From a virus, in IMG/VR virus record IMGVR_UViG_3300031576_000004, positions 64,001 to 128,000 of that record: a stretch of DNA of 64,000 nt; one strand, written 5' to 3'. Below, piece after piece: positions 20,222 through 53,105 of the stretch; within the stretch, counting starts at the first letter, position 1, and the number at the start of each line of letters is the position of its first letter. The position numbers and the translations under genes are program-made. The notes below the pieces were generated by a model. It ran no database searches, was not told where the DNA came from, and worked only from the letters and a program-made list of their open reading frames with translations.

Positions 20222-20328
20222 GCGCCGACCGATCGGATGGACGATCAGTGGGGATATCCCTTACCCATGAATACGCCCGAAAGGGGAATAGTGGGATAGC
20301 CAGAATCAATCCTGGCGCGGCGTTACCA
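20222..20328 (+). ncRNA. tRNA-like structured RNA D
   Basis: GCGCCG/CGGCGT stem, GATCG/CGATC hairpin, GCCAG-AATCAATC-CTGGC arm, ACCA end; no standard anticodon arm. Confidence 0.5.
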
Positions 20329-20329
20329 A

Positions 20330-33059: not shown

Positions 33060-36000
33060 CTATTCCTTCTGATCTCTCTGGTCGAATAGCGCTCTAGCTG
33101 GACTCTTGTCTTCCTCTTCCGCTGGAGTGTCCCCACGCGCATGCCCTTTAGCCTTTAAGCCTTTCTTAGGATCAGTCCCAGCATTAGCCGCGCCCTTGCT
33201 GGTCTTCTTTGTTTCTCCAAGATTACTTCCTGAGGCTTCAAGATCTCTGCCCTTCATTCCAGGCTTATCATTGAAGTTCCCATCTCCTCCAAATTCCCTA
33301 ACACCGGCTTCATCTGGCTGACGCGCTCCGAGCCCCTTGTAGCCTCCGCCACTAAGCTTTTCCATCTCTTCAAATTCAATCTCATCAACAAGCTTTAGCT
33401 CGGCTGTCTTCCCGAAGTTAGCGCCATAGGCATAGGCAGCAACTGGGCTCCCACCTACGATATCGGACTTCCATCCCTGCGAAGCGCCTTCCGTTAGGGT
33501 CCCTGCAAGGCGCTGGAAATTAAGCCTGGATAGCCAGTCCTCGCTCATTAGCGGGAATGTATTAATGCCCTTCATTACTGATTCGAACTTGATCGGGCTC
33601 TTCGCAGTCTCGTTGTGCTTCTCAAGATGACTGACTGTTGTGTAATCCCCAGGAGAGAACGTGGCATGGTCGCCTGGATCTAGAATCCTTGCCTGGTTCG
33701 TGAGTGGACGAACAATCGTCTCAAGAAGGCGCTTCTTAACGCCAACTCCCTGCCCAGCATACTCCTTATGTAACTCATCAACGAGATACCTCTGGGCGGA
33801 GAAGACTCCTTTAAGCTCCATTAATTCCTGAGGCTTAAGAACTCCGTCGCTCAGAGAATCCCCCTTAATGACCTTATCGCCAACATTAACCTTCATTGTC
33901 CTGCTGGCTGGAACATGATGCTCTTCCCCGCCAACGCTGATATGCCAACCTCCAACAGGAGCCTTCTTAATTGTGTCTACCTTGCCAGAGACTGTAGAGA
34001 GTGTTGCCTTGTCTCTTACGATCTTTGGCATCTCAAGAAGCTGTTTCACCCTGGTGAAGCCGGACAGAATGCCGCCCTGTTCACCAGCGATGCCTCCAGT
34101 GTGGAATGTCTTCATGGTCATCTGTGTGGCCGGCTCTGTAATTGTATGCCCAGCAATAACACCGATGTTTTCGCCTGTCCTAAGAAGCTGGCCATTCTCG
34201 GTAAGACCAAAGCACGTCGCACATGTTCCATGCATCGATTCGCAGGTAAGAGGTGATCTGACCATCAGGCTCTTTATCAATGGATTCTTTGACAGAATAT
34301 TCGGAGTAATTAACGTGCCTCGTGTAATCGGGCCTGACGTTTCGGATACATATCGATCCAGAATATCCTTGTCAGAAGTGCTCATGCTAATGCCGCGCTT
34401 TGTTCCGCAATCCTGCTCTGTTATGCGATGAGATACCGTAGAGTTCATTAGCTCTTTAGCGAACGCTCCTGGCTCACTGGTCTGCAGAGCGCGGTCCATC
34501 ATGCCTTTACGGGCTCCTGCAGTAGAGATCCAGTAATCCCCCATGTCCAAGCCCTCTGCGTAGGACTTTGTAATGGGCATCGCAACCGTGCGGTCGCTTG
34601 TATCCTTAACAAGAATAGGAGCAACAACCATCTGACGCAAGTTACCCATGGATCCCTTAGCGCCTGAATCCTGCATGTCATACAAAGAGTTCTGCTTCAG
34701 GCTGAAGACGCTCTTCAGAGCCGTATTGATCCTAGTCGTCGCCTTGTCGTACGCTCCGATAATAGATTCCTTCGTGTTCCCGCCCTTCTTTGCCTCTGCT
34801 GCGGCTTCATCGAAGATGTCTCCCTTAATCTTAGGATCGAACTTGAAGTCATCCAAGCCAACAGAGAATCCCTGCTCATAGACAGTCTGGTTACCAAGGT
34901 TCTTTAGCTTGTGTACGACTTCGGCAAAAAGCTTCGGGTCGTCTTTGTTAATAGAATCGAGAAGATCATTTAGCGCCTTGCTGGTTAGGATAAGGTCATT
35001 GTTCCTATACTTCTGTGGAATGACTGCATTAACAACAAGCTTTCCAACGGTTGTCTTTAGGCCGCGGATAGTTACCAGATCAGAGGGCTTTATCTTCCCG
35101 TTCTTGTATTCCTCTAGAGCCTGCTCCGCTGTAGTGAATACCTTCTTAGTGTCTACGCCGCCCTTGGTAAGCATATAGAGACCCAGCACAGCCTCCTGAC
35201 CTGGGACATGCATAACCTGGTTGTTTCTTGGATTATAAACGTTGTTGCTAGGCAACATCGAGAAGGACTCCTTGCGGGCCTCCTCAGTTACAGGAACATG
35301 GATAGCCATGGTATCGCCGTCGAAGTCAGCGTTGAACCCCTTAACAACGAGAGGGTTCAGGCGTATGGCTTTCCCTTCAACAAGCTTTGGCTGGAACGAC
35401 ATAATGGAGAACTTGTGCAGAGTCGGAGCCCTGTTTGCCATCACCGGTCTATCCCGCATGGCGATCTCAAGAGCCTTTCGTGCAACAGGAGACTTGTCCT
35501 CAAGTTCCTTGCGGGCATCAAGCGGCTTGTAGCCCTGCTGGTGTAGTTCTTTAATCGCGAACGGCCTGTAGATCTTCCAGGCCATGTCCTCAGGAATCCC
35601 GATCTCATCCAGCGTCAGCTGTGGCTCAGGGATAATTGTGGACCTGCCTGAAATCTCTTGTCTGCGACTAATGATCCGGTTCTGGAAGAATCCTTCCTTG
35701 TTCCTATTGCCTTTAATGGTCTCAATGAGTCCGCGGTATTCTCTATTGGTTAGGGTATCACCTAGACCAGAGACGCCCTTCATCCCCTGGTAGAGATCCT
35801 TCCTCAGATTCTTCAACTCAGAATCAGGAATACCTGCGGCCTTTGAGTCCTTGATCGAGTTATTAACTGCGATCAGATCCTTGTAGAGAGCGTTAACGTC
35901 AGAGACAACGAGGTTCCCGTCTTCAAGCGGATAGATCGGACGGAACTTCGGCGGGATAACAGGAACGTTCTTTGTTATGTAAACATTCGGATCCTGCTTG

Positions 36001-39000
36001 TTATCCTTCAGGGCCTTAAGGTAGCGGATCTTCTTGTTTGCCTTATCGAGCTCGTCACCAGTCAAACCCTTTGCATCACCAACTGCTCCGGCTAGATCCT
36101 TTGTGACGTTAACCTTATCAAGCAGCTTTTTAATGGCGACGCCGCCAGTTACAGATCCAGCTTCATGGGTCGCAGTAAATCCATGCTTCTCTGAGTAGTA
36201 AAGCTCACCAGAGATTAACGCGTCGTACTGAGACCCAGTCAGGCCTGTAATCGTTTTAATGGCGTTCTCAAACATCGGGTTAGGGAGAGCCTCTGAGAGC
36301 TCGATGTGGGACCACTTAGACCCAGCATGCCCGCCGGTAATATTGGGATCGAACAAGCCATCCTTCTCTGGCTGTAGGTTCTTTCCCTTGATGATCTTTG
36401 GCTCCTTAATTTCGCCAGAGCTCATCGAGCGCACTTCTTTATCGGTCATGGGAACAAGCTGCATGTTGTTCCCGTCTTTCTTGACATCTACGCCGGTGCC
36501 CTTCACCATCGTTATGAACTTCTCGAATGCGAAGGGGACCTTTGGCGCTGGAAGTGACTGGCCTGTCTGAATGGCGCGCCAGAACTCCTCGTTCTTCTCG
36601 CTCTTGTGCGTAGCCATTTCACGAAGGTTATGTTTTGCTCCGTGGGCAAGCATGGCGTAAAGATCTAGGGTTCCGATGGACTGGCCACCTTCTCCGCCAC
36701 CTTGTCCAGGCTGCATATCGGCCGTATAGCCGTCACGATCTCTCGCAGAGAACTTCTTCCTTGTCGGATGGTCAAGCTTCAAGATGTACTGCCTGCCAAC
36801 AAGAACAGGCGGAAGCTTCCTGTTGAGTTCTGGATCAAATATAGTTTCTTTGTCCGTAAGGCCAGCGTCCTTGAGGTCTTTCTGAACCTTCTCAAGGTAA
36901 TTGTCCTCAGAGAAGTTCCTAACTACATATGGCTTGCCAGTCTTATCAGCAATCTTGCCAGCTACGGTCTCGAGAACCTGCCCAACGTTAACGCGGGACG
37001 GAATCCCGTGAGGGTTCATTAGGATGTCTATCTTCGTTCCGTCGTTAAGAGTTGGGGTCTCAGCGTCAGATAGGATCTTCCCAATAATGCCCTTGTTTCC
37101 GTGCCGACCAACTAGCTTATCCCCTACTTTGGCTGGCTCTTCCGTAGAGATAAGGACCTCGATCTTTCCACCAGTCTTAACAACGTCGGTAACTGTCCCG
37201 ACGTCATCCTCTTCCCATGTGACGGATCGATTCTTATATGGCTTGATAAACGCCTTGTGCAGCTTGGAAAGGAGCACGTCGTCAGTTGTCTTCTCTTCCT
37301 TCCGCATTAGGGCAATAACGATTTCTCCATAAGCGACCTTTTCGCCCTTCTTAATTACTCCATCGGCATCATATTTTCCAGACTGCGCAACGCTGATGTT
37401 CTCTGGGTAATACGCCTTGAATTTGTCCAGGTTTAGAAGGGCATTCTGATCCAGCTGCGCCGACATGCGATGCATGTGCAATGACGTCAGCTTCTTCGCC
37501 GCACTCTCGGAGACAACAATGGCGTCTTCGAAATTGTAGCCCTTATATGGGACGTATGCCGTTACAAGGTTAGTCCCTAGGGCGATATGCCCGTCCTTCG
37601 TGTAATTAAGTTCATCAAGAAGCTGGCCCTTGGTTACCTTGTCCCCAACCTTAACCTGTGGGGCAGAGTCCAGATAGACCTTAGAGTTAAGTGGGTAGTG
37701 ATCATAAAGCGGATAACGATTTGTCTTCCCTGATTTCCCCTTAACAAAAACAGCGTCCTCGGTGACCTTTGTGACGGTCCCATCCTCATGGGACTTGCTC
37801 GTGTATCCAGCGCCAATCTTGCTCTCATAGGTGCTGCCCTGTTTATCTTCAACCTGAACAAGCGGGCGCTCTCTATGAAGAAGCGGGAGGGCCTGCTCCA
37901 TCATCTTTGAGGCCATCATGGCCCTGTTACCCTGGTCATTCTGCAGAAACGGGACCATATTTGTCGAAACGTCAAACATCGAGCTCGGTGATGGAATTAT
38001 ATATTGAACCTGTTCTGGCTTTACCTTGGCCACCTCGCCCTTATGAATTGCCTTAACTAATGGATATTTCGTGACGAATTTCCCGCCCTTAAGCTCATCC
38101 TGATATTGATCCCTAAACCCAACAACGACATCAAATACTTGGTTCGGAGACAGTTCTTCTTTAAGTCCAGTCTTGGCATTAAACAGGGCCGTCTTTAGGC
38201 TGTTACCTACCTTTGAAGCATTAAGCGCTAAGTGCAGAGTGGTTCCGATGGCCCCTGATTCTGGCGAATGAAGCGGGTCCAGGAATCCGATTGAAGAAGG
38301 GTGAACAGCTCGCGCCTCTGCGGTGACGGCATGCTCATTTCCAATGCCGCCCTCGCCCATGATGGTGACCTTGGTTGTCTCTCCTAGCATATGCAGAGGA
38401 TTAGTCTGCTCTGGTGTGTTGGATAGCGTCGTAGAGGTAAAGAAATCCTGGATGGGGGCATTGAGGGTATCAATCCCGATGATGTCCCTAATCCTGTCTT
38501 TCTTATCAATTACAAAGCCAATTCTAGCTTTAATCCTATTAGCGCTTTTTGTAATACGCTCAGCCACAAAGTCGTCTGTGGAATGTATTGTCTTGAACTC
38601 CAGTGAGTCCCTGTCATCAGGGGCTCTTTCGTTCCTGGATACGGTCAGGATGCGCGCAGACGTGCTGAGAAGCATATCTGCCGTCACGCTGGCGAACGCC
38701 GTCCCCAGCGTCATTTTTGTCGTCTCTGGGTCGATCTTGGTGTCGTTGAAATAGTTTGATATCGCGGCGATTGAAGTAGCTAGATCTGGGGCTGCCTTAT
38801 CGAAAATAGCCCTATAAAGCTTGGCTATTTCCTTGTCGTAATTACCACCTTTGTTCTGTGCGGCTAGATCATTACCCCAAGCGCCAGCGATCTTGGCCTC
38901 TGTAATCCCAAGGGCCATGAGAGCGTGGTATAGCTTTACGTTGGATGTCCCTACATTTAAATAGAATGTTCCGCTTGTAGGATCAAGGATAATCTTGAAA

Positions 39001-39419
39001 TTCCTGCCCTTAGCAAGGTTGACCTGAGACTCTAACTCTCCATTATCTTTAATTCTTGTGTAAACTCCTGGCTTTAATCTGAGCTGGTTTGTTACCTGAT
39101 ATTCATTTCCCTTAACAATGTAAGAGCCCCTAGGCGTTAGCTTCGGAAGATTGGCAACCTTGATCTTCCTGGCGTGATCTATCGTTTTCCCAGTGGCGTT
39201 ATCCTTTAGGGAGAAGTCTCCGTAGACCTGTGCAGCCCACGACTTCCCCCTAAGTTTGGCGTCCTTCTGCCCAGCGAAATCATGCGCGGCCTGGGTATCC
39301 TCAACCCAGACATTATTAAGGACCAGAGTTTGATTGGTGCCCTTATATGGGAAAAGGGCTGCAACTGACTCTAAGAACCTGCGCTTTATGCTCTCGTATT
39401 GCGCCTGGAAATCAAGCAT
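33060..39419 (-). CDS. rpoBC: DNA-directed RNA polymerase, beta and beta' fused in one chain
   Basis: beta motifs GYNFEDAI, GDKLVGRHGNKG, NPHGIPSR; beta' motifs NRAPTLH, NADFDGD, EPATQMTMKTFHTGG. Confidence 0.95.
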   Translation of the reverse strand: MLDFQAQYESIKRRFLESVAALFPYKGTNQTLVLNNVWVEDTQAAHDFAGQKDAKLRGKSWAAQVYGDFSLKDNATGKTIDHARKIKVANLPKLTPRGSYIVKGNEYQVTNQLRLKPGVYTRIKDNGELESQVNLAKGRNFKIILDPTSGTFYLNVGTSNVKLYHALMALGITEAKIAGAWGNDLAAQNKGGNYDKEIAKLYRAIFDKAAPDLATSIAAISNYFNDTKIDPETTKMTLGTAFASVTADMLLSTSARILTVSRNERAPDDRDSLEFKTIHSTDDFVAERITKSANRIKARIGFVIDKKDRIRDIIGIDTLNAPIQDFFTSTTLSNTPEQTNPLHMLGETTKVTIMGEGGIGNEHAVTAEARAVHPSSIGFLDPLHSPESGAIGTTLHLALNASKVGNSLKTALFNAKTGLKEELSPNQVFDVVVGFRDQYQDELKGGKFVTKYPLVKAIHKGEVAKVKPEQVQYIIPSPSSMFDVSTNMVPFLQNDQGNRAMMASKMMEQALPLLHRERPLVQVEDKQGSTYESKIGAGYTSKSHEDGTVTKVTEDAVFVKGKSGKTNRYPLYDHYPLNSKVYLDSAPQVKVGDKVTKGQLLDELNYTKDGHIALGTNLVTAYVPYKGYNFEDAIVVSESAAKKLTSLHMHRMSAQLDQNALLNLDKFKAYYPENISVAQSGKYDADGVIKKGEKVAYGEIVIALMRKEEKTTDDVLLSKLHKAFIKPYKNRSVTWEEDDVGTVTDVVKTGGKIEVLISTEEPAKVGDKLVGRHGNKGIIGKILSDAETPTLNDGTKIDILMNPHGIPSRVNVGQVLETVAGKIADKTGKPYVVRNFSEDNYLEKVQKDLKDAGLTDKETIFDPELNRKLPPVLVGRQYILKLDHPTRKKFSARDRDGYTADMQPGQGGGEGGQSIGTLDLYAMLAHGAKHNLREMATHKSEKNEEFWRAIQTGQSLPAPKVPFAFEKFITMVKGTGVDVKKDGNNMQLVPMTDKEVRSMSSGEIKEPKIIKGKNLQPEKDGLFDPNITGGHAGSKWSHIELSEALPNPMFENAIKTITGLTGSQYDALISGELYYSEKHGFTATHEAGSVTGGVAIKKLLDKVNVTKDLAGAVGDAKGLTGDELDKANKKIRYLKALKDNKQDPNVYITKNVPVIPPKFRPIYPLEDGNLVVSDVNALYKDLIAVNNSIKDSKAAGIPDSELKNLRKDLYQGMKGVSGLGDTLTNREYRGLIETIKGNRNKEGFFQNRIISRRQEISGRSTIIPEPQLTLDEIGIPEDMAWKIYRPFAIKELHQQGYKPLDARKELEDKSPVARKALEIAMRDRPVMANRAPTLHKFSIMSFQPKLVEGKAIRLNPLVVKGFNADFDGDTMAIHVPVTEEARKESFSMLPSNNVYNPRNNQVMHVPGQEAVLGLYMLTKGGVDTKKVFTTAEQALEEYKNGKIKPSDLVTIRGLKTTVGKLVVNAVIPQKYRNNDLILTSKALNDLLDSINKDDPKLFAEVVHKLKNLGNQTVYEQGFSVGLDDFKFDPKIKGDIFDEAAAEAKKGGNTKESIIGAYDKATTRINTALKSVFSLKQNSLYDMQDSGAKGSMGNLRQMVVAPILVKDTSDRTVAMPITKSYAEGLDMGDYWISTAGARKGMMDRALQTSEPGAFAKELMNSTVSHRITEQDCGTKRGISMSTSDKDILDRYVSETSGPITRGTLITPNILSKNPLIKSLMVRSPLTCESMHGTCATCFGLTENGQLLRTGENIGVIAGHTITEPATQMTMKTFHTGGIAGEQGGILSGFTRVKQLLEMPKIVRDKATLSTVSGKVDTIKKAPVGGWHISVGGEEHHVPASRTMKVNVGDKVIKGDSLSDGVLKPQELMELKGVFSAQRYLVDELHKEYAGQGVGVKKRLLETIVRPLTNQARILDPGDHATFSPGDYTTVSHLEKHNETAKSPIKFESVMKGINTFPLMSEDWLSRLNFQRLAGTLTEGASQGWKSDIVGGSPVAAYAYGANFGKTAELKLVDEIEFEEMEKLSGGGYKGLGARQPDEAGVREFGGDGNFNDKPGMKGRDLEASGSNLGETKKTSKGAANAGTDPKKGLKAKGHARGDTPAEEEDKSPARALFDQRDQKE

Positions 39420-41421: not shown

Positions 41422-41501
41422 GTAGACCCCCTAAAACAAAGTGGCGACCGAGAGCATGATAGCCCTCGATCGCCACATTTACAACACTTACTTTACTTAT
41501 T

Positions 41502-42596
41502 CTATTCTTCGCGGATATTATGAATGTTGTCTACGTGCATGATCCCGTCCCCAGTACCCTTCATCGTGAACTCCTGCCTGTACCCGAGATCATCCGTGGA
41601 TTTGAGAGCAACAACCCTCGTGGCAGTGTAGGTGTTATCAACATACAAATCCTGCACACCGGTTAGAGGATAGTGTTCAACATGGACCTTGTGTTGTCCG
41701 GCTGGCAAGGCAATCGGATCGGGAGTCCAGCCACGGATTCCACGGATGGCCACGACTGGCGGTGCACCAAACAGATTTACCCCAGCCCCACCATTCCAAA
41801 GATCCGTGATCTCTGTGTTAGACAGAACCCGCTTCCATATGAAGACTTCGTCGATTTTACCTTCGAAAGTAAGCCCGGCTGGACCCACGAGACCATTAAA
41901 ATTGCCGCAGCAGTTGTGGTCGTAATAGTCACCGATGGCGATTTCGCCAAGCTGTTGATAAGATGGGCCATCAAAGCCCTCATCGGAACCAAAGTCCATA
42001 AGAGAATAGACGGTGTGGTTCACATCCCCATCAACAACCAAGTTGCCCTTAATCCCGCTCAGGGGGCCATCCGTGTTGTAATCGTAAGTGACTACGATGT
42101 GATGATAATTACCGTCCCCAAGGGCGAATGAGCTCACGTCAAAACCGATAAATGTGGCCGGGCCGTTGGTCACCTGCAGCACGAGAGTGCTACCCTGCAA
42201 GCTAATAAGCGCACCACTGCTGCCGGTATTCAAATCGCCGATAGACCACATAACCCCATAACTTTGCGGGGATGGGACTGTTGCTGGATTCACCCAAGCT
42301 GAGATTGACCAAGTCTCCCCGAGATAAGAATTTCCGAACTCAAGATCAGTGCGCTCGATACCGCCCCAATAGAGTCCGTAATGGCCACCCGGAGCTGTGT
42401 GGGTAATGTCACCCGTGACGGCAACAGCACCAGGACCAGTCCCGATCCCAGTGCCGAACTTGCCAACTACTCCATGGGAAGCCCCAACGTTAGTAAGTTC
42501 GAAATCCCCTGAAGTCGGAACCCCTGCAACAGAGGCAAAGTTCCCGGTCAGTTCATTAAACTTCCATCCTGCGATAATATCATCGGTAAGAGCCAT
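41502..42596 (-). CDS. LamG/ConA-like virion appendage protein
   Basis: WKFNE, SISAWV, YHHIVVTYD, FEGKIDEVFIW. Confidence 0.8.
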   Translation of the reverse strand: MALTDDIIAGWKFNELTGNFASVAGVPTSGDFELTNVGASHGVVGKFGTGIGTGPGAVAVTGDITHTAPGGHYGLYWGGIERTDLEFGNSYLGETWSISAWVNPATVPSPQSYGVMWSIGDLNTGSSGALISLQGSTLVLQVTNGPATFIGFDVSSFALGDGNYHHIVVTYDYNTDGPLSGIKGNLVVDGDVNHTVYSLMDFGSDEGFDGPSYQQLGEIAIGDYYDHNCCGNFNGLVGPAGLTFEGKIDEVFIWKRVLSNTEITDLWNGGAGVNLFGAPPVVAIRGIRGWTPDPIALPAGQHKVHVEHYPLTGVQDLYVDNTYTATRVVALKSTDDLGYRQEFTMKGTGDGIMHVDNIHNIREE

Positions 42597-42631
42597 TTAT
42601 AGTCCTCCCATGTCTTGTGTATTGATAGGGA

Positions 42632-42910
42632 TTAAGCCGTCTTCTTGAGCCACTTCATGTTCGCGTTAACTGAGCCCGGATGGAACGTGTGGTTACCTTC
42701 CGTGTAAGTCTTCAGCTTGGCTTTAGCCGCGACACCTGTGAGTAGCGTCTTGCTTGCAGCAATCAATGTAGTTATCTGAGTCGCATCGAAATCACCACGG
42801 ACAACTCCAAGAGCGCCAGCAAGATTCTTTCTAACGACGCGATAATTAGGGGCTGTGCTTACATTAACGTCCGGCGTGTCTCCCGAAAATGCAAGTTCTA
42901 CGTAGAGCAT
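42632..42910 (-). CDS. small partner protein, paralog of 46372-46629
   Basis: FSGDTPDVNVSTAPNY...GDFDATQI. Confidence 0.7.
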   Translation of the reverse strand: MLYVELAFSGDTPDVNVSTAPNYRVVRKNLAGALGVVRGDFDATQITTLIAASKTLLTGVAAKAKLKTYTEGNHTFHPGSVNANMKWLKKTA

Positions 42911-42935
42911 TATTTAAACTCCTTTAGTTTTGAGC

Positions 42936-45182
42936 TTACTCTTCTCTAACCATATGGATGTTATCAGTATGCATGACACCGTTACCAGTGCCAGCCCTCG
43001 TAAACTCCTGGCGATAGCTCAGGTCATCCGTGGACTTGAGGACTACGATCCTAGTAGCCACGAACACGTTATCCACGTAGAGATCCTGGATGCCAGTAAG
43101 CGGCTGGTGATCAACATGGACCTTGTGCTGGCCTGTGGAGAGGATGATAGGATCAGGCGACCACCCACGAATACCACGAATAGCCGTTACCACATAGGTG
43201 AATCCGTTCACCAAAGTACCAAACTGAGTATCCGGATTCGTCACACGCACGTTTACGGGACCAACCCCTTGAGCTGGTGTATCACAGAAAATCGTATTTC
43301 CATCACCAAAGACGACATTGTCTGCCGGTGTGCTTCCGAAAAGAACTGTGCACCCAGACTGGAAATTACCAGGGTTACCATAGATCGTAACAGAAGTTCC
43401 TCCTGCTGTATCTCCAGTGTTCGGCACAACAAGCTGTGGATTAGGAGCCGGGAATGTATAAGTATAACCGTTAACAAGAGTCCCAGACTGCCCGTCAGAG
43501 TTGGTGACAACTACGTTTACCTGACCAGCCGCATGTAGAGGAGCATCGCAGGTTAGCGACCCCTCATTGAGAACCACCACATTTGTCGCAGGTGTTCCAC
43601 CAAAGGAAACAGTTGGGGTCGTAAACGTCTGGAAGAATCCAGTCGGGGAATTGATAATAACCCCGAAGTGGAAGTGAGTACCATTAAGCGTTACAGGAGT
43701 ACCGCCAGAGTTTATACCTGTAGCGGGGAATGCAACCGTGACGGTGGGTGCAGCATGGTAAGCAAACACATTGGACGGAGCATTACTACCCTGACCATCT
43801 GGATTCTGAACGAACAGGTTTACCAGACCGTCAGAGGTTGTTCCGCCTGGGCTCGGCGGCATAACCCCGGTCAGAGTCGTCGAGCTTTGAAATACTAAGC
43901 TCTGGACGTTAACCCCGTTTACTGTCGCAAAGCAACCAGACTGGAATCCGGTACCAGAAATCGTGACAGCCGTTCCGCCGACAGATGGCCCGTAGGCTGG
44001 CGAAATTGGAGCTGGGGTGTTTACCGTCGGAGCCGCATTATAAGTGTAACCGTTAATAAGCGAACCAAACTGGCTGTCTGGATTTGCTACGTTTATGGTA
44101 GCCAAACCAGATGCGTGAGCTGGCATGTTGCAAGTTATTGTGTTTGCATCCACGACGACCACGTTCGTCGCCTCTGTCCCAGGGGGCGCGAAGAATGGCT
44201 CGTCTGCGCCAATCGCAGGGGAAGACAAGCGAACATCGCCATCCATATCCTCTGTCAAACCAGCAATAGCCACACCAGCACCTATAGCTGGAGATCCTGC
44301 CATCAAGTGCGGATTAGCAAAGCTAGTCAGCAAAGGATCCGCTGTAAACGAATTAGCTTCCTTACCTACTGCCTGGAAATCTGCAAGTGTCACATAGGCA
44401 GTTGGAGGGTCTACGTTGTGGAAGAGTTTAGCATATTGAAGAACTGGAATATTAAAAGTCAAGTTATTGGAAGCACTAAAGTTATCTGCAAGTCCAGTAG
44501 GAGTATTAGCAGAAAGAACATATATAGCGCGGTGACTAGAGTTAGAAACGATAGTGTGATAGATATTGTCCTTAAACATAGTCTTCCAAGCGTTCTCAAC
44601 GCTTGAGCTTAGAACGCCAGCATAGTTCCTGACCGTGTTGCCGAAGGCTTTGAAGTTCAATACCGACACGAACGCAACGTCGCCCTCAGAAACGACCCTA
44701 GGACGGATATAGCAGTTCCTGACTATGATTGGCTCTGTGTTAAAGTCTACACCTTCCATCGCATAGAACGCATAATGCCCGCCGTTAGTCACTACCTCCA
44801 TCTGCTCGAAGATAACGTGTCTTAATAGATTAAACCCGCCCTGGAAGGAAGGAAGGGACGGATTACAGTTCTTAGTATTGAACCACTTAATTGTGACCCT
44901 GGCCGTGGAAGAGCCAATGACTCCTATGCCATTGACATTCTGGCCATCAAGAATAGAACGATTGGCATTGCTTTGCCCTCGAACTGTAAGCCTGAAAGCA
45001 CCGGTATTAATTCCACCAAAAAACATAACTTCAACATTAGAGCCTGCCTGAGAAAACGTCTCACCACCGTTACAAACGATTTCCCAGTCCTCAGTGAATG
45101 GGGTGTGGTTCAGAACCAAATCAGCGATAGCTGCCTGAATGGTTGTGAACGGCTTATCTGAACCTACCAGCGACATTCCCAT
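42936..45182 (-). CDS. beta-helix plus IPT/TIG-repeat appendage protein
   Basis: FTTIQAAI, GSPAIGAG..DMDG..R..AIGADE; repeats of GGTxVTI...V.V.NPDGQ. Confidence 0.8.
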   Translation of the reverse strand: MGMSLVGSDKPFTTIQAAIADLVLNHTPFTEDWEIVCNGGETFSQAGSNVEVMFFGGINTGAFRLTVRGQSNANRSILDGQNVNGIGVIGSSTARVTIKWFNTKNCNPSLPSFQGGFNLLRHVIFEQMEVVTNGGHYAFYAMEGVDFNTEPIIVRNCYIRPRVVSEGDVAFVSVLNFKAFGNTVRNYAGVLSSSVENAWKTMFKDNIYHTIVSNSSHRAIYVLSANTPTGLADNFSASNNLTFNIPVLQYAKLFHNVDPPTAYVTLADFQAVGKEANSFTADPLLTSFANPHLMAGSPAIGAGVAIAGLTEDMDGDVRLSSPAIGADEPFFAPPGTEATNVVVVDANTITCNMPAHASGLATINVANPDSQFGSLINGYTYNAAPTVNTPAPISPAYGPSVGGTAVTISGTGFQSGCFATVNGVNVQSLVFQSSTTLTGVMPPSPGGTTSDGLVNLFVQNPDGQGSNAPSNVFAYHAAPTVTVAFPATGINSGGTPVTLNGTHFHFGVIINSPTGFFQTFTTPTVSFGGTPATNVVVLNEGSLTCDAPLHAAGQVNVVVTNSDGQSGTLVNGYTYTFPAPNPQLVVPNTGDTAGGTSVTIYGNPGNFQSGCTVLFGSTPADNVVFGDGNTIFCDTPAQGVGPVNVRVTNPDTQFGTLVNGFTYVVTAIRGIRGWSPDPIILSTGQHKVHVDHQPLTGIQDLYVDNVFVATRIVVLKSTDDLSYRQEFTRAGTGNGVMHTDNIHMVREE

Positions 45183-45217
45183 TTTCTATTCCTCCGTATT
45201 TCTTACGTTAAATTTAA

Positions 45218-45502
45218 TTAAGGAGCAGGAAGTGGCGCTGGCGGCGGTTGTGGCCGATCCGCAACATTTACGGACAACAGTGCCCCAGTCGTGGCCGCTG
45301 AATCAATCGCCTTGATAAGCCCCATAAGATCATTAGCATCCTGTGACCCGAGAGTAATGTCTGGACGGTTAATCAAATCAAACAATACCTTCTCATTAAC
45401 AGAAAACGATTCCTGAGCCCTCATGGCCACTGTCTTTCTGCAGTTAGCATGGGAGTTAGGAAACCAAGGCCCGGCAATCTTCGCAACCAATAGATAAGCC
45501 AT
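45218..45502 (-). CDS. small hypothetical protein
   Basis: SD AGGAG; precedes the beta-helix gene. Confidence 0.6.
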   Translation of the reverse strand: MAYLLVAKIAGPWFPNSHANCRKTVAMRAQESFSVNEKVLFDLINRPDITLGSQDANDLMGLIKAIDSAATTGALLSVNVADRPQPPPAPLPAP

Positions 45503-45542
45503 TTACTTCTCTCCTTGTATTATCGTATTATCGTGCTGTCTT

Positions 45543-46355
45543 TTAGGCTACGAAAACCCTAGCCCCAGCAGCGAAGTTAGCTCCAGCAATTGTTACAGGA
45601 GTCCCACCAGCTACAGGGCCGGAAACCGGGACGATAGTGGCCAACGAAGGAGCTGGAGCAAGAGCCCACAGATTCGTCCCGGCCCCACCGTTCCACAGTC
45701 CTGCTCGTTCCGTTGAAGTAATAACTCTATCCCATGTTATCATCTCATCAATAACCCCATTGAAGAATGCCGAAGCCGCGTAGCTTGATCTGCCTACACG
45801 GAATGGGGTCGTAAGAACAATCTCATCGATAAGCGATGTACTTACTCCGCTTCCAGCATCTTCCACATTGTCTACATACATTCTAAAACCGCCAGCAACA
45901 CCAGCGATGAACGTGATAACTCCAAGGTGGAAGACATTGTCATTGACGGTGGCAGTCGATCCATGGATTAATACTTGATTCGCGCCTTTCTGGAAAACTG
46001 TCCGCAGGACGCCAGTATAAACAGACGCCTGGAACATGCTATCAACCGGAACGCCGAGAGGGTTCCTCTTGGAGAATATCATATCCTCAAAGAATGGATT
46101 GCTTGGTGATGCCGTTTTGAACCAAAAAGAAATAGAGAAGTTCTTCCCAATAGGGATATTCAGATTCGGCGAGCTAGCATTATCTATTGCGGCAAAGCTA
46201 GTAGAGCCATTGAATAAAGCCCCATACCCAACTTTCCCTGCCGCCTGATAGCCAACAGAAGTTGGGACAAGCGCGTGTGCTGCTACCTTTGATATAAAGT
46301 TGCCGGAAGCCTCGTCGAGCTTCCAGGCATCTATGATGTTGTCTGTAATCGGCAT
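45543..46355 (-). CDS. LamG/ConA-like protein ending in half an IPT domain
   Basis: WKLDE, FSISFWFK, FNGVIDEMITW; terminal SGPVAGGTPVTIAGANF. Confidence 0.8.
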   Translation of the reverse strand: MPITDNIIDAWKLDEASGNFISKVAAHALVPTSVGYQAAGKVGYGALFNGSTSFAAIDNASSPNLNIPIGKNFSISFWFKTASPSNPFFEDMIFSKRNPLGVPVDSMFQASVYTGVLRTVFQKGANQVLIHGSTATVNDNVFHLGVITFIAGVAGGFRMYVDNVEDAGSGVSTSLIDEIVLTTPFRVGRSSYAASAFFNGVIDEMITWDRVITSTERAGLWNGGAGTNLWALAPAPSLATIVPVSGPVAGGTPVTIAGANFAAGARVFVA

Positions 46356-46371
46356 TTTATGCTCCCGTTTA

Positions 46372-46629
46372 TTAGATGCCAGTGATCATAGTCGGGTAGG
46401 CGGCAACCCAAGCATCACCCCAAGCCCTGGCTTGCGCGGTAGCTTGCGCTGCGGTCAGCAGCGTCTTCGGGGCTGCGATTAACGCATTGATCTGAGCAGC
46501 GTCAAAGTCACCGGACACGACCTTCTCTGTCCCGTCAACTTTTGCCGCCCCAACGGTATAATTTGGAGCCGCCGATACATCGACATCCGGCGTATCCCCA
46601 GTAAAGTTTAGCACTGTGAAGATTGACAT
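46372..46629 (-). CDS. small partner protein
   Basis: FTGDTPDVDVSAAPNY...GDFDAAQI. Confidence 0.7.
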   Translation of the reverse strand: MSIFTVLNFTGDTPDVDVSAAPNYTVGAAKVDGTEKVVSGDFDAAQINALIAAPKTLLTAAQATAQARAWGDAWVAAYPTMITGI

Positions 46630-46640
46630 TGAATTTTCTC

Positions 46641-47264
46641 CTAGGAAGGTGACCCGTCAGAGATGACCAATGCAGCTCCGAATCCGGCAGGAGCGGAGCC
46701 GACGGAGACCACCAACTCCACACCACTCGGAGCAGCGGGAATGTTGATATTGGTCCCGAACTCCACCCTCTTGATAACGGATTGCTTGATAGCCGTGCAC
46801 TGATGCTCCCAGGAAACCTGAGAGCCAAGGGCAGCGTTGAGAGTAGCCTTGAGAGACTTGGCCCCAATAGCCGTGGTGCCGCCGTCAGAGGCGACGACCA
46901 GCGTCCCGCCCGCAGTGTCCATCGCATTGGCAAACCCGGCCTGGAGAGGAGTCTGACCGACGGTTGCAGTCTCCATATCCACCAGACCAGTTGTCACGTT
47001 GTGCGTTTCGATTGGGTACTGAGGGAACGTCTCGTGACGGGCAACGCCACCGTTGCCATTAATGGCAGCCTGAGCATTCGCAATGCCCTGAGATGTCGTG
47101 TTTGCTGGAAGGTTTACTTCAACAGCGACCAGCTTTCCGTTGACGTCACGGATAATAGTGGAAGCGTTGTTTGGGTGCGCAGCATTAACAGCATTTTGGA
47201 TCGCGGTCAGCGTTAAATCGCTTGCCTGAGCCCCAGGATCACAGATTATATTAATCTTCGGCAT
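46641..47264 (-). CDS. putative virion protein, paralog of 47441-48340 lacking the C-terminal part
   Basis: Shared AAHPN...IRDVNGK..V.VNLP N-terminal module. Confidence 0.7.
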   Translation of the reverse strand: MPKINIICDPGAQASDLTLTAIQNAVNAAHPNNASTIIRDVNGKLVAVEVNLPANTTSQGIANAQAAINGNGGVARHETFPQYPIETHNVTTGLVDMETATVGQTPLQAGFANAMDTAGGTLVVASDGGTTAIGAKSLKATLNAALGSQVSWEHQCTAIKQSVIKRVEFGTNINIPAAPSGVELVVSVGSAPAGFGAALVISDGSPS

Positions 47265-47288
47265 TGTCTACTCCCCTTTCTTTTAAAG

Positions 47289-47319
47289 AAAATGTGGGCG
47301 ATGTCAATATCGCCCACAT
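47289..47319 (-). terminator. intrinsic terminator
   Basis: ATGTGGGCGAT/ATCGCCCACAT hairpin with a T-tract on the - strand. Confidence 0.65.
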
Positions 47320-47440
47320 ACTTAACACACTATTTATGTAATGTTGTGTAGTTATTGTTTGTCTTTGCATTTTATAATACGTTTATTACAAGTTCCGGCC
47401 GAGCCATGAACGCGTCTCCTAAATTCTGGCTAACTGCAGC

Positions 47441-48340
47441 CTAAGCAATACGATCCATGATCAGGTTGTCGATGTAGCTCCTCCCAGCCCCAGAAGTTCC
47501 GCTTGGGTAACGCGTGCGAGAGACATACTCCCAGATCGTTCTTGGGCTCAGTGCTCCCATGACAGTTTCCTTCAGAACGCCATCAACCCAGAGAGCGTAT
47601 GTTCCAGTCATGAGATCACAATCCATATACGCTGTGTGATGCGCGCCAGCAGACATAGTATATAACGCGGAAGGCGTCCCATCCGGCGTAGTTAGATACA
47701 CTCCACGGCCTACTGGAGCAGTCGGCGCGAAACCAACAGGGTAATCATGGAATGTAAGACGCATAGCACCATCCCTATCTCCAACTTCAAGTTCATTTCC
47801 GCTCTCGCTTCCAAGAGCTGGCCAGAAAACACTGTAGCCAATCCTCAGGCGCTTGAATGGCGAAGGTGTCGGAACAAAGGTGCACATCCAGCCATTGCCA
47901 TCATCCGGAGCAGAGACACAGAACTGTTCCAAGCACTTCGTTCCGGTAGCCGGATGATCTAAAGAAACCGTGTTAGAAATCGAAGCTGGGCCACCCTGAG
48001 GGCTAACTACTAGTCCCTGAGTAAGGCCCCAATCGTAAACCTCTTGAGCTAAAGGCGCGCCTTCGAAACCAGTATCTGCGAATAGGGGTACCGGCATGAA
48101 CGAGGCCGATGCAGTAGCCACACCAGGATTGGCATTAATCGCAGCGGCAGCAACATCCAGATTCCCCTGTGATACGCCGAACGGAAGATTGACCTTCACC
48201 TCCACAACCTTGCCATTCACGTCACGAATGACTTCGGCGGCAAAGTTAGGATGCGCTGCGGCGGCCGCGGCCCGCACCTCATTGAGTGTCTTCTCGCTAG
48301 ACTGAGAATACGGATCAATCGGGACGTTAATAGATGGCAT
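47441..48340 (-). CDS. putative virion protein with beta-sandwich C-domain
   Basis: N-module as above; C-terminal LWVDG...YIDNL. Confidence 0.7.
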   Translation of the reverse strand: MPSINVPIDPYSQSSEKTLNEVRAAAAAAHPNFAAEVIRDVNGKVVEVKVNLPFGVSQGNLDVAAAAINANPGVATASASFMPVPLFADTGFEGAPLAQEVYDWGLTQGLVVSPQGGPASISNTVSLDHPATGTKCLEQFCVSAPDDGNGWMCTFVPTPSPFKRLRIGYSVFWPALGSESGNELEVGDRDGAMRLTFHDYPVGFAPTAPVGRGVYLTTPDGTPSALYTMSAGAHHTAYMDCDLMTGTYALWVDGVLKETVMGALSPRTIWEYVSRTRYPSGTSGAGRSYIDNLIMDRIA

Positions 48341-48355: not shown

Positions 48356-48730
48356 CTACTTTGCTAAGTTGTAATTAACTACTAGCGTATTACCGAGCTG
48401 ATTCGTAAGGATTGTAATGACTTTGCCGCCGGAAACAAAAGAGTAATCCGTGTTCAATGTTAATAGTGCTGTGGCGGCTGGAGCGCCGGTCGCAGTAACG
48501 AAAGCCATTATAGAGTTGATTGACGCCGCATTTGTCTGAAGAGTAAGCGTCCCGCTGACATTGACTCCGGCGAATGTCTCTTGGCAATCTATTAGTAGCG
48601 TCTTCCGATAAGATCTGACGGCAACTGTTTCGACATCTTCTACTACGGCAGCCATTTCATGTCTTCCGACTTTATCGTCAACATCTCTAAGAGCTCCCTT
48701 GTTGTCGAAGTAATATGCTTTGTCTTTCAT
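48356..48730 (-). CDS. putative structural protein
   Basis: beta-rich ORF in the late operon. Confidence 0.6.
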   Translation of the reverse strand: MKDKAYYFDNKGALRDVDDKVGRHEMAAVVEDVETVAVRSYRKTLLIDCQETFAGVNVSGTLTLQTNAASINSIMAFVTATGAPAATALLTLNTDYSFVSGGKVITILTNQLGNTLVVNYNLAK

Positions 48731-48750: not shown

Positions 48751-49335
48751 TTAAACAAAGTTTATTTGAGCCGTGTCAACAACAGCAAGGCCAGATGGCG
48801 TCGGGGCGCTAAGTGTTAATGTCACCATCTGCACGACCGAGTCTTTGACTTGAACCGTTGCCTCGCCATTGGTGAATGTTACTGGCTGAGAAGTCACAAT
48901 CACTGCGCTTCCGCTAACAGAGACAGTTACCATGCTTGTATTGTTAAATGGATTTGTCACTCCAAATCCATTCGCAACCCTAACAACGACCGGCGTCAGC
49001 GTGGACCCGTCTGCTGTCCCAGAGAACGGGGAGCCATTCTCGAATAGGACTTGCGCGTCAGTTGATACAATGTAATTCAGAAGCTCGTTAAACTCGGCCT
49101 GTGTTACAGGAGAGTCTGAGTCTTGAGAGAAGCTTATGATCTGGAGTTTGCCAGCTGTAACGAGACGTTGAATTTCTTCGCTGGATGCATATGTATCCGG
49201 AATTGTTCCGGTGTCTCCCGCAGTCCCAAATGGATTTAATTTTCTCTGAACATCCGGAGTTCCAAGCGGAGCCCCAGCTGCACGTCGTTCGATAAGAACG
49301 ATCTTTCCTGCTGTTAAGTTTTTTACTGTTGCCAT
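48751..49335 (-). CDS. putative decoration protein with Ig-like C-terminus
   Basis: N-terminus paralogous to 49345-49839; ADG...VTFTNGEATV. Confidence 0.65.
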   Translation of the reverse strand: MATVKNLTAGKIVLIERRAAGAPLGTPDVQRKLNPFGTAGDTGTIPDTYASSEEIQRLVTAGKLQIISFSQDSDSPVTQAEFNELLNYIVSTDAQVLFENGSPFSGTADGSTLTPVVVRVANGFGVTNPFNNTSMVTVSVSGSAVIVTSQPVTFTNGEATVQVKDSVVQMVTLTLSAPTPSGLAVVDTAQINFV

Positions 49336-49344: not shown

Positions 49345-49839
49345 TTAGGCGATAACGGTATAGCTAAACACTTCAGCGCCAGCCGCCATGCCTGGGGTTG
49401 ACACAGCAAAGCTAACCCCAGGAACTATGCCGCCAATGCCGGCGAACGCTCCAGGAGGAGTCGAAAGAAGAATGGCCGCAGAAGCGTTCTGCGCAAACAG
49501 GAAGATCTTTGATCCTGCAGCGATGTTAGCCGCTGGGACAACAGACACGGGACCTGGTGTAGCCATAAAAGAACCGCGGATAACAGCCCTGTTAAATTCG
49601 TCCTGGCCGAAATCGCTGTCAGCGGCTGTGCTGTAAGAAAGGATTGCTAGCTTGCCTGCGGTTACAAGATTGGTGATCTCTGTTGAGCGGGCGAAGGAGT
49701 CCGGAATCGTTCCAGTATCTCCTGGCGCTCCAAAAGCAGTAAGCCGAACTTCAACATCAGGAGTTCCAACTGGAGATCCTAGCGGCCTACGCTCGATTAA
49801 AGCCAATGTGCCAGTGGTCAGGTTCTGTACGCTTGCCAT
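49345..49839 (-). CDS. putative decoration protein
   Basis: V.NLT.G...IERR...GTPDV...GDTGTIPD. Confidence 0.65.
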   Translation of the reverse strand: MASVQNLTTGTLALIERRPLGSPVGTPDVEVRLTAFGAPGDTGTIPDSFARSTEITNLVTAGKLAILSYSTAADSDFGQDEFNRAVIRGSFMATPGPVSVVPAANIAAGSKIFLFAQNASAAILLSTPPGAFAGIGGIVPGVSFAVSTPGMAAGAEVFSYTVIA

Positions 49840-50120: not shown

Positions 50121-53105
50121 TCATGTTGTCGTCTCCAGGAATTCCTTTTGGCCAGAGGTCTCAGCATTATAGATGAGAGTGGGCACCATCGTTAGGGCTA
50201 CCTTCTCGTTCTTCCACCTGGAGACCATTTCAAAATCATGCGCGTAGCCAACTTCAGTGCGATTCTTCCACCATCCATATTTCTCTATTAGACTCTTCTT
50301 ATGAAGCACCTCTGATGTATCCACCTGGAACTTCTCTGGGGCAGTACAGAACCTAGGCTTGCCATCTACAAGCATGGATGATAATGCGTAGCTTGCTCCC
50401 TCAAATTTCATCTTATCGTGTAGGCATGATAAATGGTCCGACATAACCGTGTTATCGTCATCTACATACGCTATTAAGTTGGCTGACGACAACATGATCC
50501 CGTAATTCCTAGGAATAGCCCCGCCTGCTCCATGGTTATTGGGCAGGTTAAATATGCGGGCCTTTTCGCAGGCATAATCCTGTAATTCTGGACAATTGTC
50601 CCCAACAATAATTATCTCTTTGGAGAAATAGTCCTGCTCCAAGACGGACGCCACGGCCTTCCCTAGAAGCAGGTTCTTCACCCTCTTGTGAGTCGGGATA
50701 ATCACAGAGATCTTCGGGCCTAAATAGAACTCCTTGATCCGCGGATCTGATGGATGAGCATAATTAAGGATCGGATATTCCTTCAGGGTCTCCTCGAAGA
50801 GCTCGCTGTCCGTATCGAATTCCCCACCCAGCTCTCGGTATTGCGCTATGGATTTAATGCGCCTTGTTGCGTCGTGAAACCCCAGGTGGTGAGTTATTAA
50901 GGAATTCTTAAGTACTACGACTCTATTCGATCCGATAAGCTTCTCATGCACAGGGAAGACCCACCTGATATCAGGCTTGTTCCTGTGCATGAACGGCTTC
51001 GCAATATGCTCCTTGCCGTTTGTGTCCACAAGCTTCGCCAGGAAGATGTCGTATTCATCCTGATCAACGAGCTCCCAAATATTCTCCAGCGTGGACTTGT
51101 CGAGGCGCTCGTCCGGATCAAACATAATGATCCAATCACAGCTGAGCGCAAACTTGCCAATGGCATGATTTCTGGCTCTTGAAAAAGCTGTAAACTCATA
51201 GTCCTCTATGATGGCAACGCCATTATTTTTAGCCCATTCGACGGTGCCGTCTGTGGAGCCAGAATCCAATATCGATATATCATTAGTAATCCCTTTGAAC
51301 TGTTCAACAAATCCTGGAAGCGCCTCGATCTCATCCTTTGTGATCGCAATGACCTTAATCTTTGGGTGCTTCCTGTGGAATGGAGCCCTGTTCTCCTCTA
51401 GGATTTTGTTAATATCGAGATCGTTGGCTTTGAAGGTGGCGTGTCCCTCATGGTGGATCCACGCCCGCTCAACTATCTTGCAGATATACCCAGCCTTGCG
51501 AACTCGAGCGCAGTAATCTGTGTCTTCAAAGTTAACGAACCTCGTGTCGAATCCTCCGAGCTTCTTGAACATGTCTGTCCTGGTCATCATGCAGACACCC
51601 ACTACAGAATCCACGACAAGGCTTCCATGCCTGAAAGCGTCTTCCTTCTGAACGTATCCCTGAGGGGGACAAGCATAGTTTGAGTACGGGCCAACAACCG
51701 CTGTTGCTTGGGAATCATTTAATCCAATAAGAAGCCTGTCTAGAACTCCAGGCTCTACGACTGTGTCGCTGTTAAGGAAACAGATATATGGCGACGTCAC
51801 TTCCATCGCCGCCCTATTGCACCCAGCGGCATAGCCGATATTCGCCTCTAGGTTGATGACCTTGGTTGCCGGCCCTTCAACCGGAACTTTGGATCCGTTG
51901 TTAAGAAGGATAACTGGCAGCGTCGGGTAGTGCTTCTTAACTGATTCAAGGCACCGCTTCGTGAGCTCCGGGGTATTCCAATCAAGGACAACAATGGAGA
52001 TACATCCTTCCCGATGTCTCCTGTTATTGAATTCCTCAAACTCATGGCGGTAATTGTTGCGGCCAATCTCAAGGTTATCCTGAATCGCCTTATTCTTTGT
52101 AAACGTTGTGTTCTGGAAGGCGTCTAGGAAGCGATAGAGGTATAGACATTTGTCCAGGTGGAAACACTTGGACCTAAGGAAAAAGCGAGCATAGAGGTCC
52201 CAATCGTCTGCGATCGCTAATTGCGGATTGTACCCACCAAGCTCTCTGAATGTCTTAGCTCGGTAAGCTCTGATGTGGTTCGGCCCAACCGTCAGAAACC
52301 AACCGAACTGCTTGTAGTACTCTGGGCCAAATCTGTCATAGATATTCGGATTAACAGCCTCCATATACTTCTTCCCGTTGTACTCAAACTCCCTATACCT
52401 TCCATCCTTAACCCACTCTGGGAAGGTGTGCGGGGAACCGTCCTGGAAGAAGCTGGCGCAGTTCGTATAAACCATCCCAGCTTCTGGATGCGATTTAAAT
52501 GCCGCGGCGACATCATAGACCGCATCACGAGTAAGCATATCGTCATGATCCAACTCGATCAGGTAAACGCCTGTGCATAGGCGTGTGGCCATGTCCTTTA
52601 GTGCGCCAACCTTGCCTATGTGGTTAACCTTGATCGGCCTGACCCTGTGGTCAATTTTAGCGAACTCTAAGAGGCGCTCGTATGTCCCATCGGTAGATCC
52701 ATCGTCAACGACAACCCATTCCCAGTTCGGATACGTTTGATCTCTGAGAGAGTAGTAGGTGTCCAGGATCATGCCGCCAGTGTTAAATGTCGGCGTATAG
52801 ACCGAAACAAGCGGCTGAACATCATCTTCTTTTGGCGCTGTCCAAATATTGTTTATGTAAACGTTCTGGATCGATTGCGCCACAGCTTCTGGAGTGGCTT
52901 TAGGGTCGCTTACATTCATCCACTTTTTCCGCAGATCGTAGCCCGCTGCGTTGAGCTCACCAGGGAAGAATCCAGTGGTAACAATAACATCTGGCCTGAA
53001 CCTGGCTATCGCAGGAAGCAGATCCTTAATGTCTGTTACTGTGCAGGATTCGGCAGGGACATCCCACTGCCGCAAGACAAACAGGACTCTTATTCCACTT
53101 ATCAT
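50121..53105 (-). CDS. multidomain glycosyltransferase with four GT2 (GT-A) domains
   Basis: VSVYTP..DDGSTD..LDHDD; ISIVVL..NNGS..LNSD; IAITKDE..DSGSTD..FDPDE; ISVIIP..GDNC..YVDDD. Confidence 0.9.
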   Translation of the reverse strand: MISGIRVLFVLRQWDVPAESCTVTDIKDLLPAIARFRPDVIVTTGFFPGELNAAGYDLRKKWMNVSDPKATPEAVAQSIQNVYINNIWTAPKEDDVQPLVSVYTPTFNTGGMILDTYYSLRDQTYPNWEWVVVDDGSTDGTYERLLEFAKIDHRVRPIKVNHIGKVGALKDMATRLCTGVYLIELDHDDMLTRDAVYDVAAAFKSHPEAGMVYTNCASFFQDGSPHTFPEWVKDGRYREFEYNGKKYMEAVNPNIYDRFGPEYYKQFGWFLTVGPNHIRAYRAKTFRELGGYNPQLAIADDWDLYARFFLRSKCFHLDKCLYLYRFLDAFQNTTFTKNKAIQDNLEIGRNNYRHEFEEFNNRRHREGCISIVVLDWNTPELTKRCLESVKKHYPTLPVILLNNGSKVPVEGPATKVINLEANIGYAAGCNRAAMEVTSPYICFLNSDTVVEPGVLDRLLIGLNDSQATAVVGPYSNYACPPQGYVQKEDAFRHGSLVVDSVVGVCMMTRTDMFKKLGGFDTRFVNFEDTDYCARVRKAGYICKIVERAWIHHEGHATFKANDLDINKILEENRAPFHRKHPKIKVIAITKDEIEALPGFVEQFKGITNDISILDSGSTDGTVEWAKNNGVAIIEDYEFTAFSRARNHAIGKFALSCDWIIMFDPDERLDKSTLENIWELVDQDEYDIFLAKLVDTNGKEHIAKPFMHRNKPDIRWVFPVHEKLIGSNRVVVLKNSLITHHLGFHDATRRIKSIAQYRELGGEFDTDSELFEETLKEYPILNYAHPSDPRIKEFYLGPKISVIIPTHKRVKNLLLGKAVASVLEQDYFSKEIIIVGDNCPELQDYACEKARIFNLPNNHGAGGAIPRNYGIMLSSANLIAYVDDDNTVMSDHLSCLHDKMKFEGASYALSSMLVDGKPRFCTAPEKFQVDTSEVLHKKSLIEKYGWWKNRTEVGYAHDFEMVSRWKNEKVALTMVPTLIYNAETSGQKEFLETTT

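Follow-up and report, generated by a model that had tools for sequence, protein, structure and literature searches.

Can a β-sandwich domain whose coding sequence is divided between two genes serve a phage as an assembly joint? The question is raised by a cluster of minus-strand genes at positions 41502–48340 of the window, by which is meant the whole 64,000-base stretch analysed here, comprising bases 64001–128000 of the 163,302-base IMG/VR record IMGVR_UViG_3300031576_000004 (CheckV completeness 88%). Its source is an uncultured jumbo-type phage of approximately 163 kb with no close sequenced relative. In the cluster, both an IPT/TIG domain and a predicted lectin-like jelly roll are split over two polypeptides, with cuts that complement each other, as a preliminary description made from the sequence had claimed, and the pieces are conserved and under purifying selection. 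Reassembly in trans is predicted for at least the lectin joint, where we give it an even chance, and with somewhat less confidence for the IPT joint.

Domains were assigned with the Pfam profiles TIG/IPT (PF01833; 84 positions, cutoff 20.9 bits) and Laminin_G_3 (PF13385, ConA-like lectin/glucanase superfamily; gathering score 27.6 bits). The 270-residue protein (open reading frame (ORF) 45543–46355) consists of a LamG domain (45651–46355; Laminin_G_3, expectation value (E) 1.9e-14, 54.5 bits) and the first half of an IPT domain, strands A-B-C (45546–45650), after which a stop codon follows: its last 35 residues match TIG positions 1–35 of 84 and nothing beyond (27 bits) as well as positions 1–37 of 88 in NF058597, and its C-terminus reads ...ARVFVA*. 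The missing part was located in the 748-residue protein (ORF 42936–45182), where a right-handed β-helix module (residues 1–332, 44187–45182; weak choice-of-anchor Q motif at residues 292–326) is abutted by an orphan second half, strands C'-G (residues 333–385, 44028–44186). Here only TIG positions 38–84 of 84 are matched, at residues ~335–381 (26.3 bits), with no first half before them. Both half domains score above the cutoff. The orphan half is followed by three complete IPT domains forming a stalk (43191–44027; TIG positions 3–84, E ~1e-10 each) and by an 84-residue C-terminal tail. The profile matches confirm that the shorter ORF stops within an IPT domain and that the second half lies directly behind the β-helix of the longer one, both of which had been proposed in the preliminary description. 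When the end of the 270-residue protein (...AGARVFVA) is joined to the start of the orphan half (GTEATNVVVV...), one full repeat results with at most one residue in doubt, as judged against the canonical tandem IPT proteins P0030 and P0031. By our own estimate, the chance of two independent truncations matching this well is a few percent, and the simplest history would be a single cut of one ancestral IPT domain in the C-C' hairpin. In an immunoglobulin (Ig)-like sandwich, each of the two halves (A, B, C and C', E, F, G) feeds both sheets, so neither half should be stable alone.

The second divided domain has an undivided paralogue next door. The 299-residue protein (47441–48340) comprises a ferredoxin-like N-domain (residues 1–80) and a predicted jelly roll (residues ~92–299). 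To its residues 1–224 the whole of the 207-residue protein (46641–47264), termed the socket, could be aligned (34% identity, E 9e-19), which gives the socket the same N-domain and the first ~60% of the jelly roll. The socket terminates with ...SDGSPS at the position equivalent to residue 224, leaving ~75–84 residues of the longer protein without a counterpart. A segment of this size, the 84-residue C-terminal tail or plug, closes both the 748-residue protein (42939–43190) and the 364-residue protein (ORF 41502–42596; tail 41505–41756, LamG domain 41757–42596 with 42.1 bits for Laminin_G_3), and the two tails are 75% identical (E 1e-42). The N-terminal match of the short to the long protein and the common closing segment of ~80 residues, both pointed out in the preliminary description, are thereby confirmed.

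The tail aligns with residues 212–297 of the 299-residue protein (29% identity, pairwise E 9e-6), corresponding to the last ~5 strands of the jelly roll. The link between tail and 299-residue protein is strengthened by the match falling exactly on the part absent from the socket. It is strengthened further by third-party giant proteins, of which the same ~57-residue stretches are matched separately by the tails and by the C-terminal part of the 299-residue protein at 10–20 bits each, the two sets of matches being not fully independent since the giant proteins were picked with a joint profile. These tail-like stretches recur with a period of ~300 residues and overlap weak matches to PF22585 (Sialidase-like carbohydrate-binding module (CBM); profile positions 95–139 of 156). 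Recurrence and overlap together suggest that the tail makes up the final third of a jelly roll of the LamG-like kind and does not form a small domain of its own. Searches against Pfam, PHROGs and NCBIfam gave no family above cutoffs for the 299- and 207-residue proteins, the tails, or the small S, T and 124-residue proteins described below, and in a set of 5.8 billion proteins the 299-residue protein had no homologue of similar length. In profile–profile comparisons, the sockets gave no signal against the LamG set; the same comparison of the tails was discarded as circular, since the 364-residue protein carries a tail.

In structure models of the 299-residue protein, residues 1–80 were well predicted as a β-α-β-β-α-β domain of the ferredoxin-like type. 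Residues 92–299 of the AlphaFold2 model superposed on whole legume-lectin domains with Z ~11, for example on 1sbf_A residues 12–233 (Z 11.2, root-mean-square deviation 3.8 Å, 178 residues aligned). The ESM Atlas model (predicted local distance difference test (pLDDT) 63) matched LamG, DUF1080 and CBM jelly rolls over residues 80–299 with template modelling (TM) scores of 0.54–0.61. Both models, each of low confidence, place residues ~92–299 in one ConA/legume-lectin-like jelly roll, the C-terminal 75 residues included. For the Atlas model of the 207-residue protein, structural neighbours were obtained for the N-domain only (HMA-like) and none for the other 130 residues, a result which fits an incomplete sandwich and could also be due to poor modelling.

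Conservation of the pieces was assessed in relatives. A profile search over 1.84 billion representatives for tail-bearing proteins yielded a single further one, P0004 (739 residues), encoded on a 3.2-kb ENA contig from an independent sample (L006). P0004 is a full-length orthologue of the 748-residue protein (50% identity) with the same β-helix/half-IPT junction and the same tail. Identity between the two amounts to 30% in the β-helix module, which is fast-evolving, and to 72% in the orphan half IPT. Segment by segment, at saturated synonymous sites (proportion of synonymous differences (pS) 0.65–0.75), the nonsynonymous divergence (dN) was 0.83 for the β-helix, 0.185 for the orphan half, 0.25, 0.21 and 0.44 for the full domains IPT1, IPT2 and IPT3, respectively, and 0.42 for the tail; the constraint on the orphan half is therefore no weaker than that on the complete IPT domains. 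The tails of the 748- and 364-residue proteins differ by a dN of 0.21 at a pS of 0.79, with 39% identity at third codon positions, and on these values are an old duplication under purifying selection. Degenerate or unconserved halves, which would have spoken against a function of the split, were looked for; the orphan half IPT and the tails proved to be conserved and under purifying selection.

Socket homologues from other samples (P0025 and P0026, 208 residues each, and P0027, 200 residues) are 36–47% identical to the 207-residue protein, and all four sockets, each from a different phage, end at the same invariant SDG[SA]PS. The short form is thus the norm; among the members known, the C-terminal part lies in cis in the 299-residue protein alone. 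Within the phage, the N-domains of the 207- and 299-residue proteins are 50% identical, versus 32% between the 207-residue protein and its L006 orthologue; for the jelly-roll part the corresponding values are 32% and 43%. Such a reversed pattern would fit an N-domain that serves as a phage-specific anchor and is attached to a jelly-roll part conserved between phages. No match to the 748-residue protein was obtained among GenBank phages, close relatives were absent from IMG/VR in searches with the 270- and 748-residue proteins, the N-terminal part of the RNA polymerase (RNAP), the 748/739 alignment and the socket alignment, and two JGI metagenome scans yielded no match, or none beyond a duplicate of the socket-bearing contig L007.

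On the minus strand, the order of transcription is 299-residue protein, 207-residue protein, S, 270-residue protein, T, 748-residue protein, S' and 364-residue protein. ORFs and stops agree with those listed in the preliminary description, and each gene has its own Shine–Dalgarno sequence and ATG. A terminator-like hairpin lies between the genes for the 299- and 207-residue proteins (47292–47319; 11-bp stem and T run) and another one closes the block (41441–41476; 15-bp stem and T run), so that the two strong hairpins bracket exactly seven genes, from the 207- to the 364-residue protein; terminator-like sites overall do not exceed the shuffled expectation, and just these two stand out, by stem length. 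The genes from 46641–47264 through 41502–42596 most likely form one transcription unit of virion-surface adhesin genes. A small gene follows each break, as had been noted earlier: S (85 residues, 46372–46629), ahead of the first LamG gene, and its paralogue S' (92 residues, 42632–42910) are homologous (E 2e-18), and T (94 residues, 45218–45502), ahead of the β-helix gene, is a different protein without a family match.

Upstream of the block, two further proteins of 194 residues (48751–49335) and 164 residues (49345–49839), both on the minus strand, are 60% identical over their N-terminal 84 residues and have unrelated C-terminal parts. They are thus a further pair in which a presumed docking module is shared and the distal parts vary. 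The minus strand also encodes a 994-residue ORF and a 772-residue collagen-like fibre protein (50121–53105 and 56310–58628), which are located between the adhesin cluster and the portal gene.

The order of these genes is not the same elsewhere. On L006, a possible end of a T-like gene, whose similarity to T is not significant, is followed by the genes for the 739-residue protein, a 208-residue socket and a homologue of the window's 124-residue protein. Tail-bearing and socket genes are thus adjacent, with the tail gene immediately upstream, opposite to the order in the window, which argues against a fixed nested-insertion layout and for functionally linked genes that get shuffled. On L007 and L008, different putative fibre genes, unrelated to those of the window, come after the socket gene, the contigs being too short to show tails. 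The 124-residue family, which is unannotated, adjoins the socket gene in three phages (window 48356–48730, L007 401–805, L006 3018–3248), upstream of it in the window and on L007, downstream on L006.

Four LamG genes have a small S-type gene ahead of them, namely in the pairs S/270 and S'/364 in the window, in an 84-/271-residue pair at genome positions 140.4–141.4 kb, and in an 85-/335-residue pair next to the major capsid gene on contig L010, the likeness to S being weak in the latter two (E ~5e-4 pairwise). The position on L010 may be compatible with appendages on the head or on the tail. This contig (Logan contig SRR21686402_77702, 7971–11008), from a distant relative, has a GIY-YIG homing-endonuclease gene between the major capsid gene and the S-like/LamG pair, and its LamG protein P0029 ends in a different C-terminal part of ~100 residues. 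The latter was considered as a diverged tail and rejected, since the match stems from the last part of the LamG domain. The third pair belongs to a second appendage cluster of the same genome (L011, genome positions 136000–152000; features at 4421–5451, 5476–8087, 2471–3715 and 8333–9655), which contains the 84-residue S-like gene, the 271-residue LamG protein with a short C-extension of 25 residues, paralogous β-helix proteins of 431 and 438 residues, and paralogous proteins of 414 and 440 residues.

In the mechanism proposed here, the two divided β-sandwich domains would be rebuilt in trans as assembly joints. The 207-residue protein would act as an adaptor, docking on the virion via its ferredoxin-like N-domain and offering ~60% of a legume-lectin-type jelly roll, whose last ~5 strands would come from the 84-residue tail of either the 748-residue protein, with its β-helix and IPT stalk, or the 364-residue LamG protein. 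At the base of the β-helix, strands A–C of the 270-residue protein would complete the orphan strands C'–G of the 748-residue protein and so hang a second lectin on this fibre, giving a branched, modular adhesin set. The 299-residue protein would be a self-contained variant using the same virion site. Association is predicted by Rosetta-stone logic, since the fused 299-residue form places both parts in one fold, and the argument is supported by complementarity, conservation and gene linkage. The end facing the virion would be that of the socket's N-domain, and the cuts would have arisen by in-frame insertion or by illegitimate recombination of cassettes.

Several results weigh against this reconstruction, and some of them would be expected if the cuts were recombination scars without trans-assembly. 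In that case the half domains would pack in cis (the half IPT, for instance, on the β-helix cap), the tail would be an autonomous anchoring or oligomerisation module, and the 207-residue protein a paralogue of reduced length whose sandwich is smaller. Mosaicism is well known in phage fibre genes, the gene order differs between the window and L006, and the short C-ends of this phage's LamG proteins vary. The first strand of the tail apparently duplicates the last strand of the socket, which a clean split does not predict and which fits independent modules. With a profile built from the tails only and run against 1402 genome ORFs, the 299-residue protein was found at E 0.046, and one unrelated ORF scored better, so that the resemblance of the tail to the missing C-terminal part, claimed in the preliminary description, stands in the pairwise comparison and is only marginal genome-wide. 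The better-scoring ORF (14081–14437, plus strand; Cys-containing, 117 residues, early region; E 0.003) was judged a chance match as a tail relative and sets the noise level of this profile. The AlphaFold2 model of the 299-residue protein has a mean pLDDT of 59, with residues 81–161 below 50. A natural L006 read-through, P0032, in which the tail, a 10-residue linker and the socket are joined with three TAG codons read as Gly, was modelled by AlphaFold2 at pLDDT 48.7; the jelly-roll part of the socket stayed unmodelled, and the fusion gave no docking and was uninformative on this point. The tail was found in one relative only, which leaves two phages as the basis for plug and socket occurring together. 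No orthologue of the 270-residue protein with a half IPT was found, its only LamG relative, P0029 (39% identical), differing at the C-end.

Scars alone, however, leave unexplained why the half IPT is as constrained as whole IPT domains over saturated divergence, why four diverged sockets break off within the jelly roll at an identical residue, and why both cuts are complementary to the residue. Half sandwiches, moreover, leave their hydrophobic core exposed and would hardly be expected to be stable by themselves. We regard the scar explanation as possible but less likely than rebuilding in trans. The overall interpretation of the preliminary description, in which cassettes inserted into β-sandwich genes leave halves that re-associate, is partly supported by the complementary division of both domains, the conserved orphan halves, the unsplit paralogue next door and the terminator-bracketed block. 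A strictly nested history of cassette insertion is questionable in view of the differing L006 order and the strand apparently duplicated at the socket end and tail start.

If the halves do associate, the polarity could be the reverse of that proposed, with the 207-type protein binding the fibre tails in the manner of Tfa or gp38, as an assembly factor or tip adhesin and not as a virion-proximal adaptor. The L006 socket gene lies directly downstream of the fibre gene, the usual place of a fibre-assembly gene in Mu, P2, lambda and T4, and no part is shared more widely than the tails among fibres that otherwise differ. Such an arrangement is nonetheless unlikely, as the socket gene comes first in the window operon, the N-terminal LamG and β-helix modules look distal and ligand-binding, the socket N-domain is common to the self-contained 299-residue protein, and no match to known Tfa or gp38 families was found.

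An artefact, be it an assembly chimera, decaying pseudogenes or a single gene broken up by recoding, by an intein or by an intron, is very improbable, for although the ORFs of the 270- and 748-residue proteins share one frame, twelve stops lie between them in this frame, each gene has its own start signals, both the β-helix/half-IPT junction and the socket end recur unchanged in the independent sample, the Pfam matches to these proteins include no intein or intron family, and purifying selection on the pieces is strong. By the same twelve stops, read-through of the 270- into the 748-residue gene is ruled out. Deletion switching via direct DNA repeats was likewise rejected, only diverged IPT-repeat matches (≤76% over 38 nt) being present. 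Split inteins or trans-splicing were rejected since no intein family is found in the Pfam matches and the junctions ...ARVFVA* and ...FFAPPGTEAT... lack intein motifs and Cys, Ser or Thr at +1.

Elsewhere in the window, 33 tRNA genes are followed by a tmRNA gene (18775–25495) with a tag peptide ending in ...VVAMAA. A single 2119-residue ORF on the minus strand (33060–39419) represents RNAP β fused to β'; its best phage matches, in the Vibrio phages D181, D148 and D69, are ~32% identical, and in these phages the β-β' region either falls into separate parts or has a homing endonuclease inserted in it.

If the halves reassemble, the use of fold complementation in the adsorption devices of phages would go beyond the donation of a hairpin known from phage Tuc2009. 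Half domains, the lectin jelly roll included, would be usable for this purpose, one socket could serve several adhesins, and a second joint could branch the fibre. Truncated-looking domains at gene ends in appendage clusters could then signal interaction partners, so that fibre architecture might be read from sequence, and the pairs would provide natural orthogonal split domains for modular phage or protein engineering, with the unsplit 299-residue paralogue beside the split pair as a built-in control. More tentatively, and somewhat short of an even chance, large phages may in general split whole β-sandwich domains, the lectin jelly roll included, as a plug-and-socket code for exchangeable adhesins, with one adaptor taking alternative plugs, a joint nested in another fibre, and a lectin sugar site that possibly forms only after two-chain assembly.

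Among known systems, the nearest likeness is offered by the baseplate tripod of the Lactococcus phage Tuc2009, in whose crystal structure a C-terminal hairpin of BppU completes a β-sheet of a BppA domain, the composite domain resembling a titin Ig domain (PMC4742702). In both cases an accessory carbohydrate-binding protein is fixed to the adsorption device by fold completion, an association which is predicted only in the present case. In Tuc2009 a hairpin of 25 residues is donated, whereas here 4–5 strands would be (half an IPT domain, or 84 residues of a ~200-residue lectin jelly roll), and, unlike in Tuc2009, an unsplit paralogue is present and one plug is common to two different adhesins. 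No sequence relationship to BppU or BppA turned up in the present searches, none of which was aimed at these proteins.

Branched anchor-branch systems of receptor-binding proteins are described for Klebsiella phages and Ackermannviridae (PMC6872550, PMC13352976, PMC11414711). They resemble the arrangement proposed here in holding several adhesins on one particle via conserved docking modules, and thus in making host-range modules exchangeable. Docking in these systems is attributed to a branching domain together with a short conserved N-terminal peptide or XD domains and not to a split fold, whereas the conserved docking pieces here are C-terminal. The T4 gp10-like branching domain family was not listed for any cluster protein among the Pfam, PHROG and NCBIfam matches.

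In the pili of the chaperone-usher type (Fim, Pap, Caf1), one subunit contributes a strand that fills the gap in the incomplete Ig-like fold of another, and fold completion is an assembly principle there as is proposed here. The pili use a single G strand from an N-terminal extension together with a periplasmic chaperone and an usher; in the phage virion context, large half-domains would be used instead. The pieces described here are accordingly not donor strands of the pilus type, the missing parts spanning 3–5 strands and the donor pieces being C-terminal or internal, and no chaperone or usher family was found among the Pfam, PHROG and NCBIfam matches to the cluster proteins. In two-chain legume lectins (pea, lentil, favin), a ConA-like jelly roll is formed by two non-covalently associated chains, and the fold thus tolerates such a cut. 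The legume chains arise by proteolysis of one precursor after folding, whereas the separate gene products of the phage would have to fold together. Taken together, pili and two-chain lectins indicate that neither the principle nor the cut is physically implausible. New in the present case are the size of the pieces that would be donated, the splitting of a predicted jelly roll of lectin type in place of an Ig domain, a single socket for which two plugs are available, the presence of an unsplit paralogue in the neighbouring gene, and a second split joint inside one of the plug-bearing fibres.

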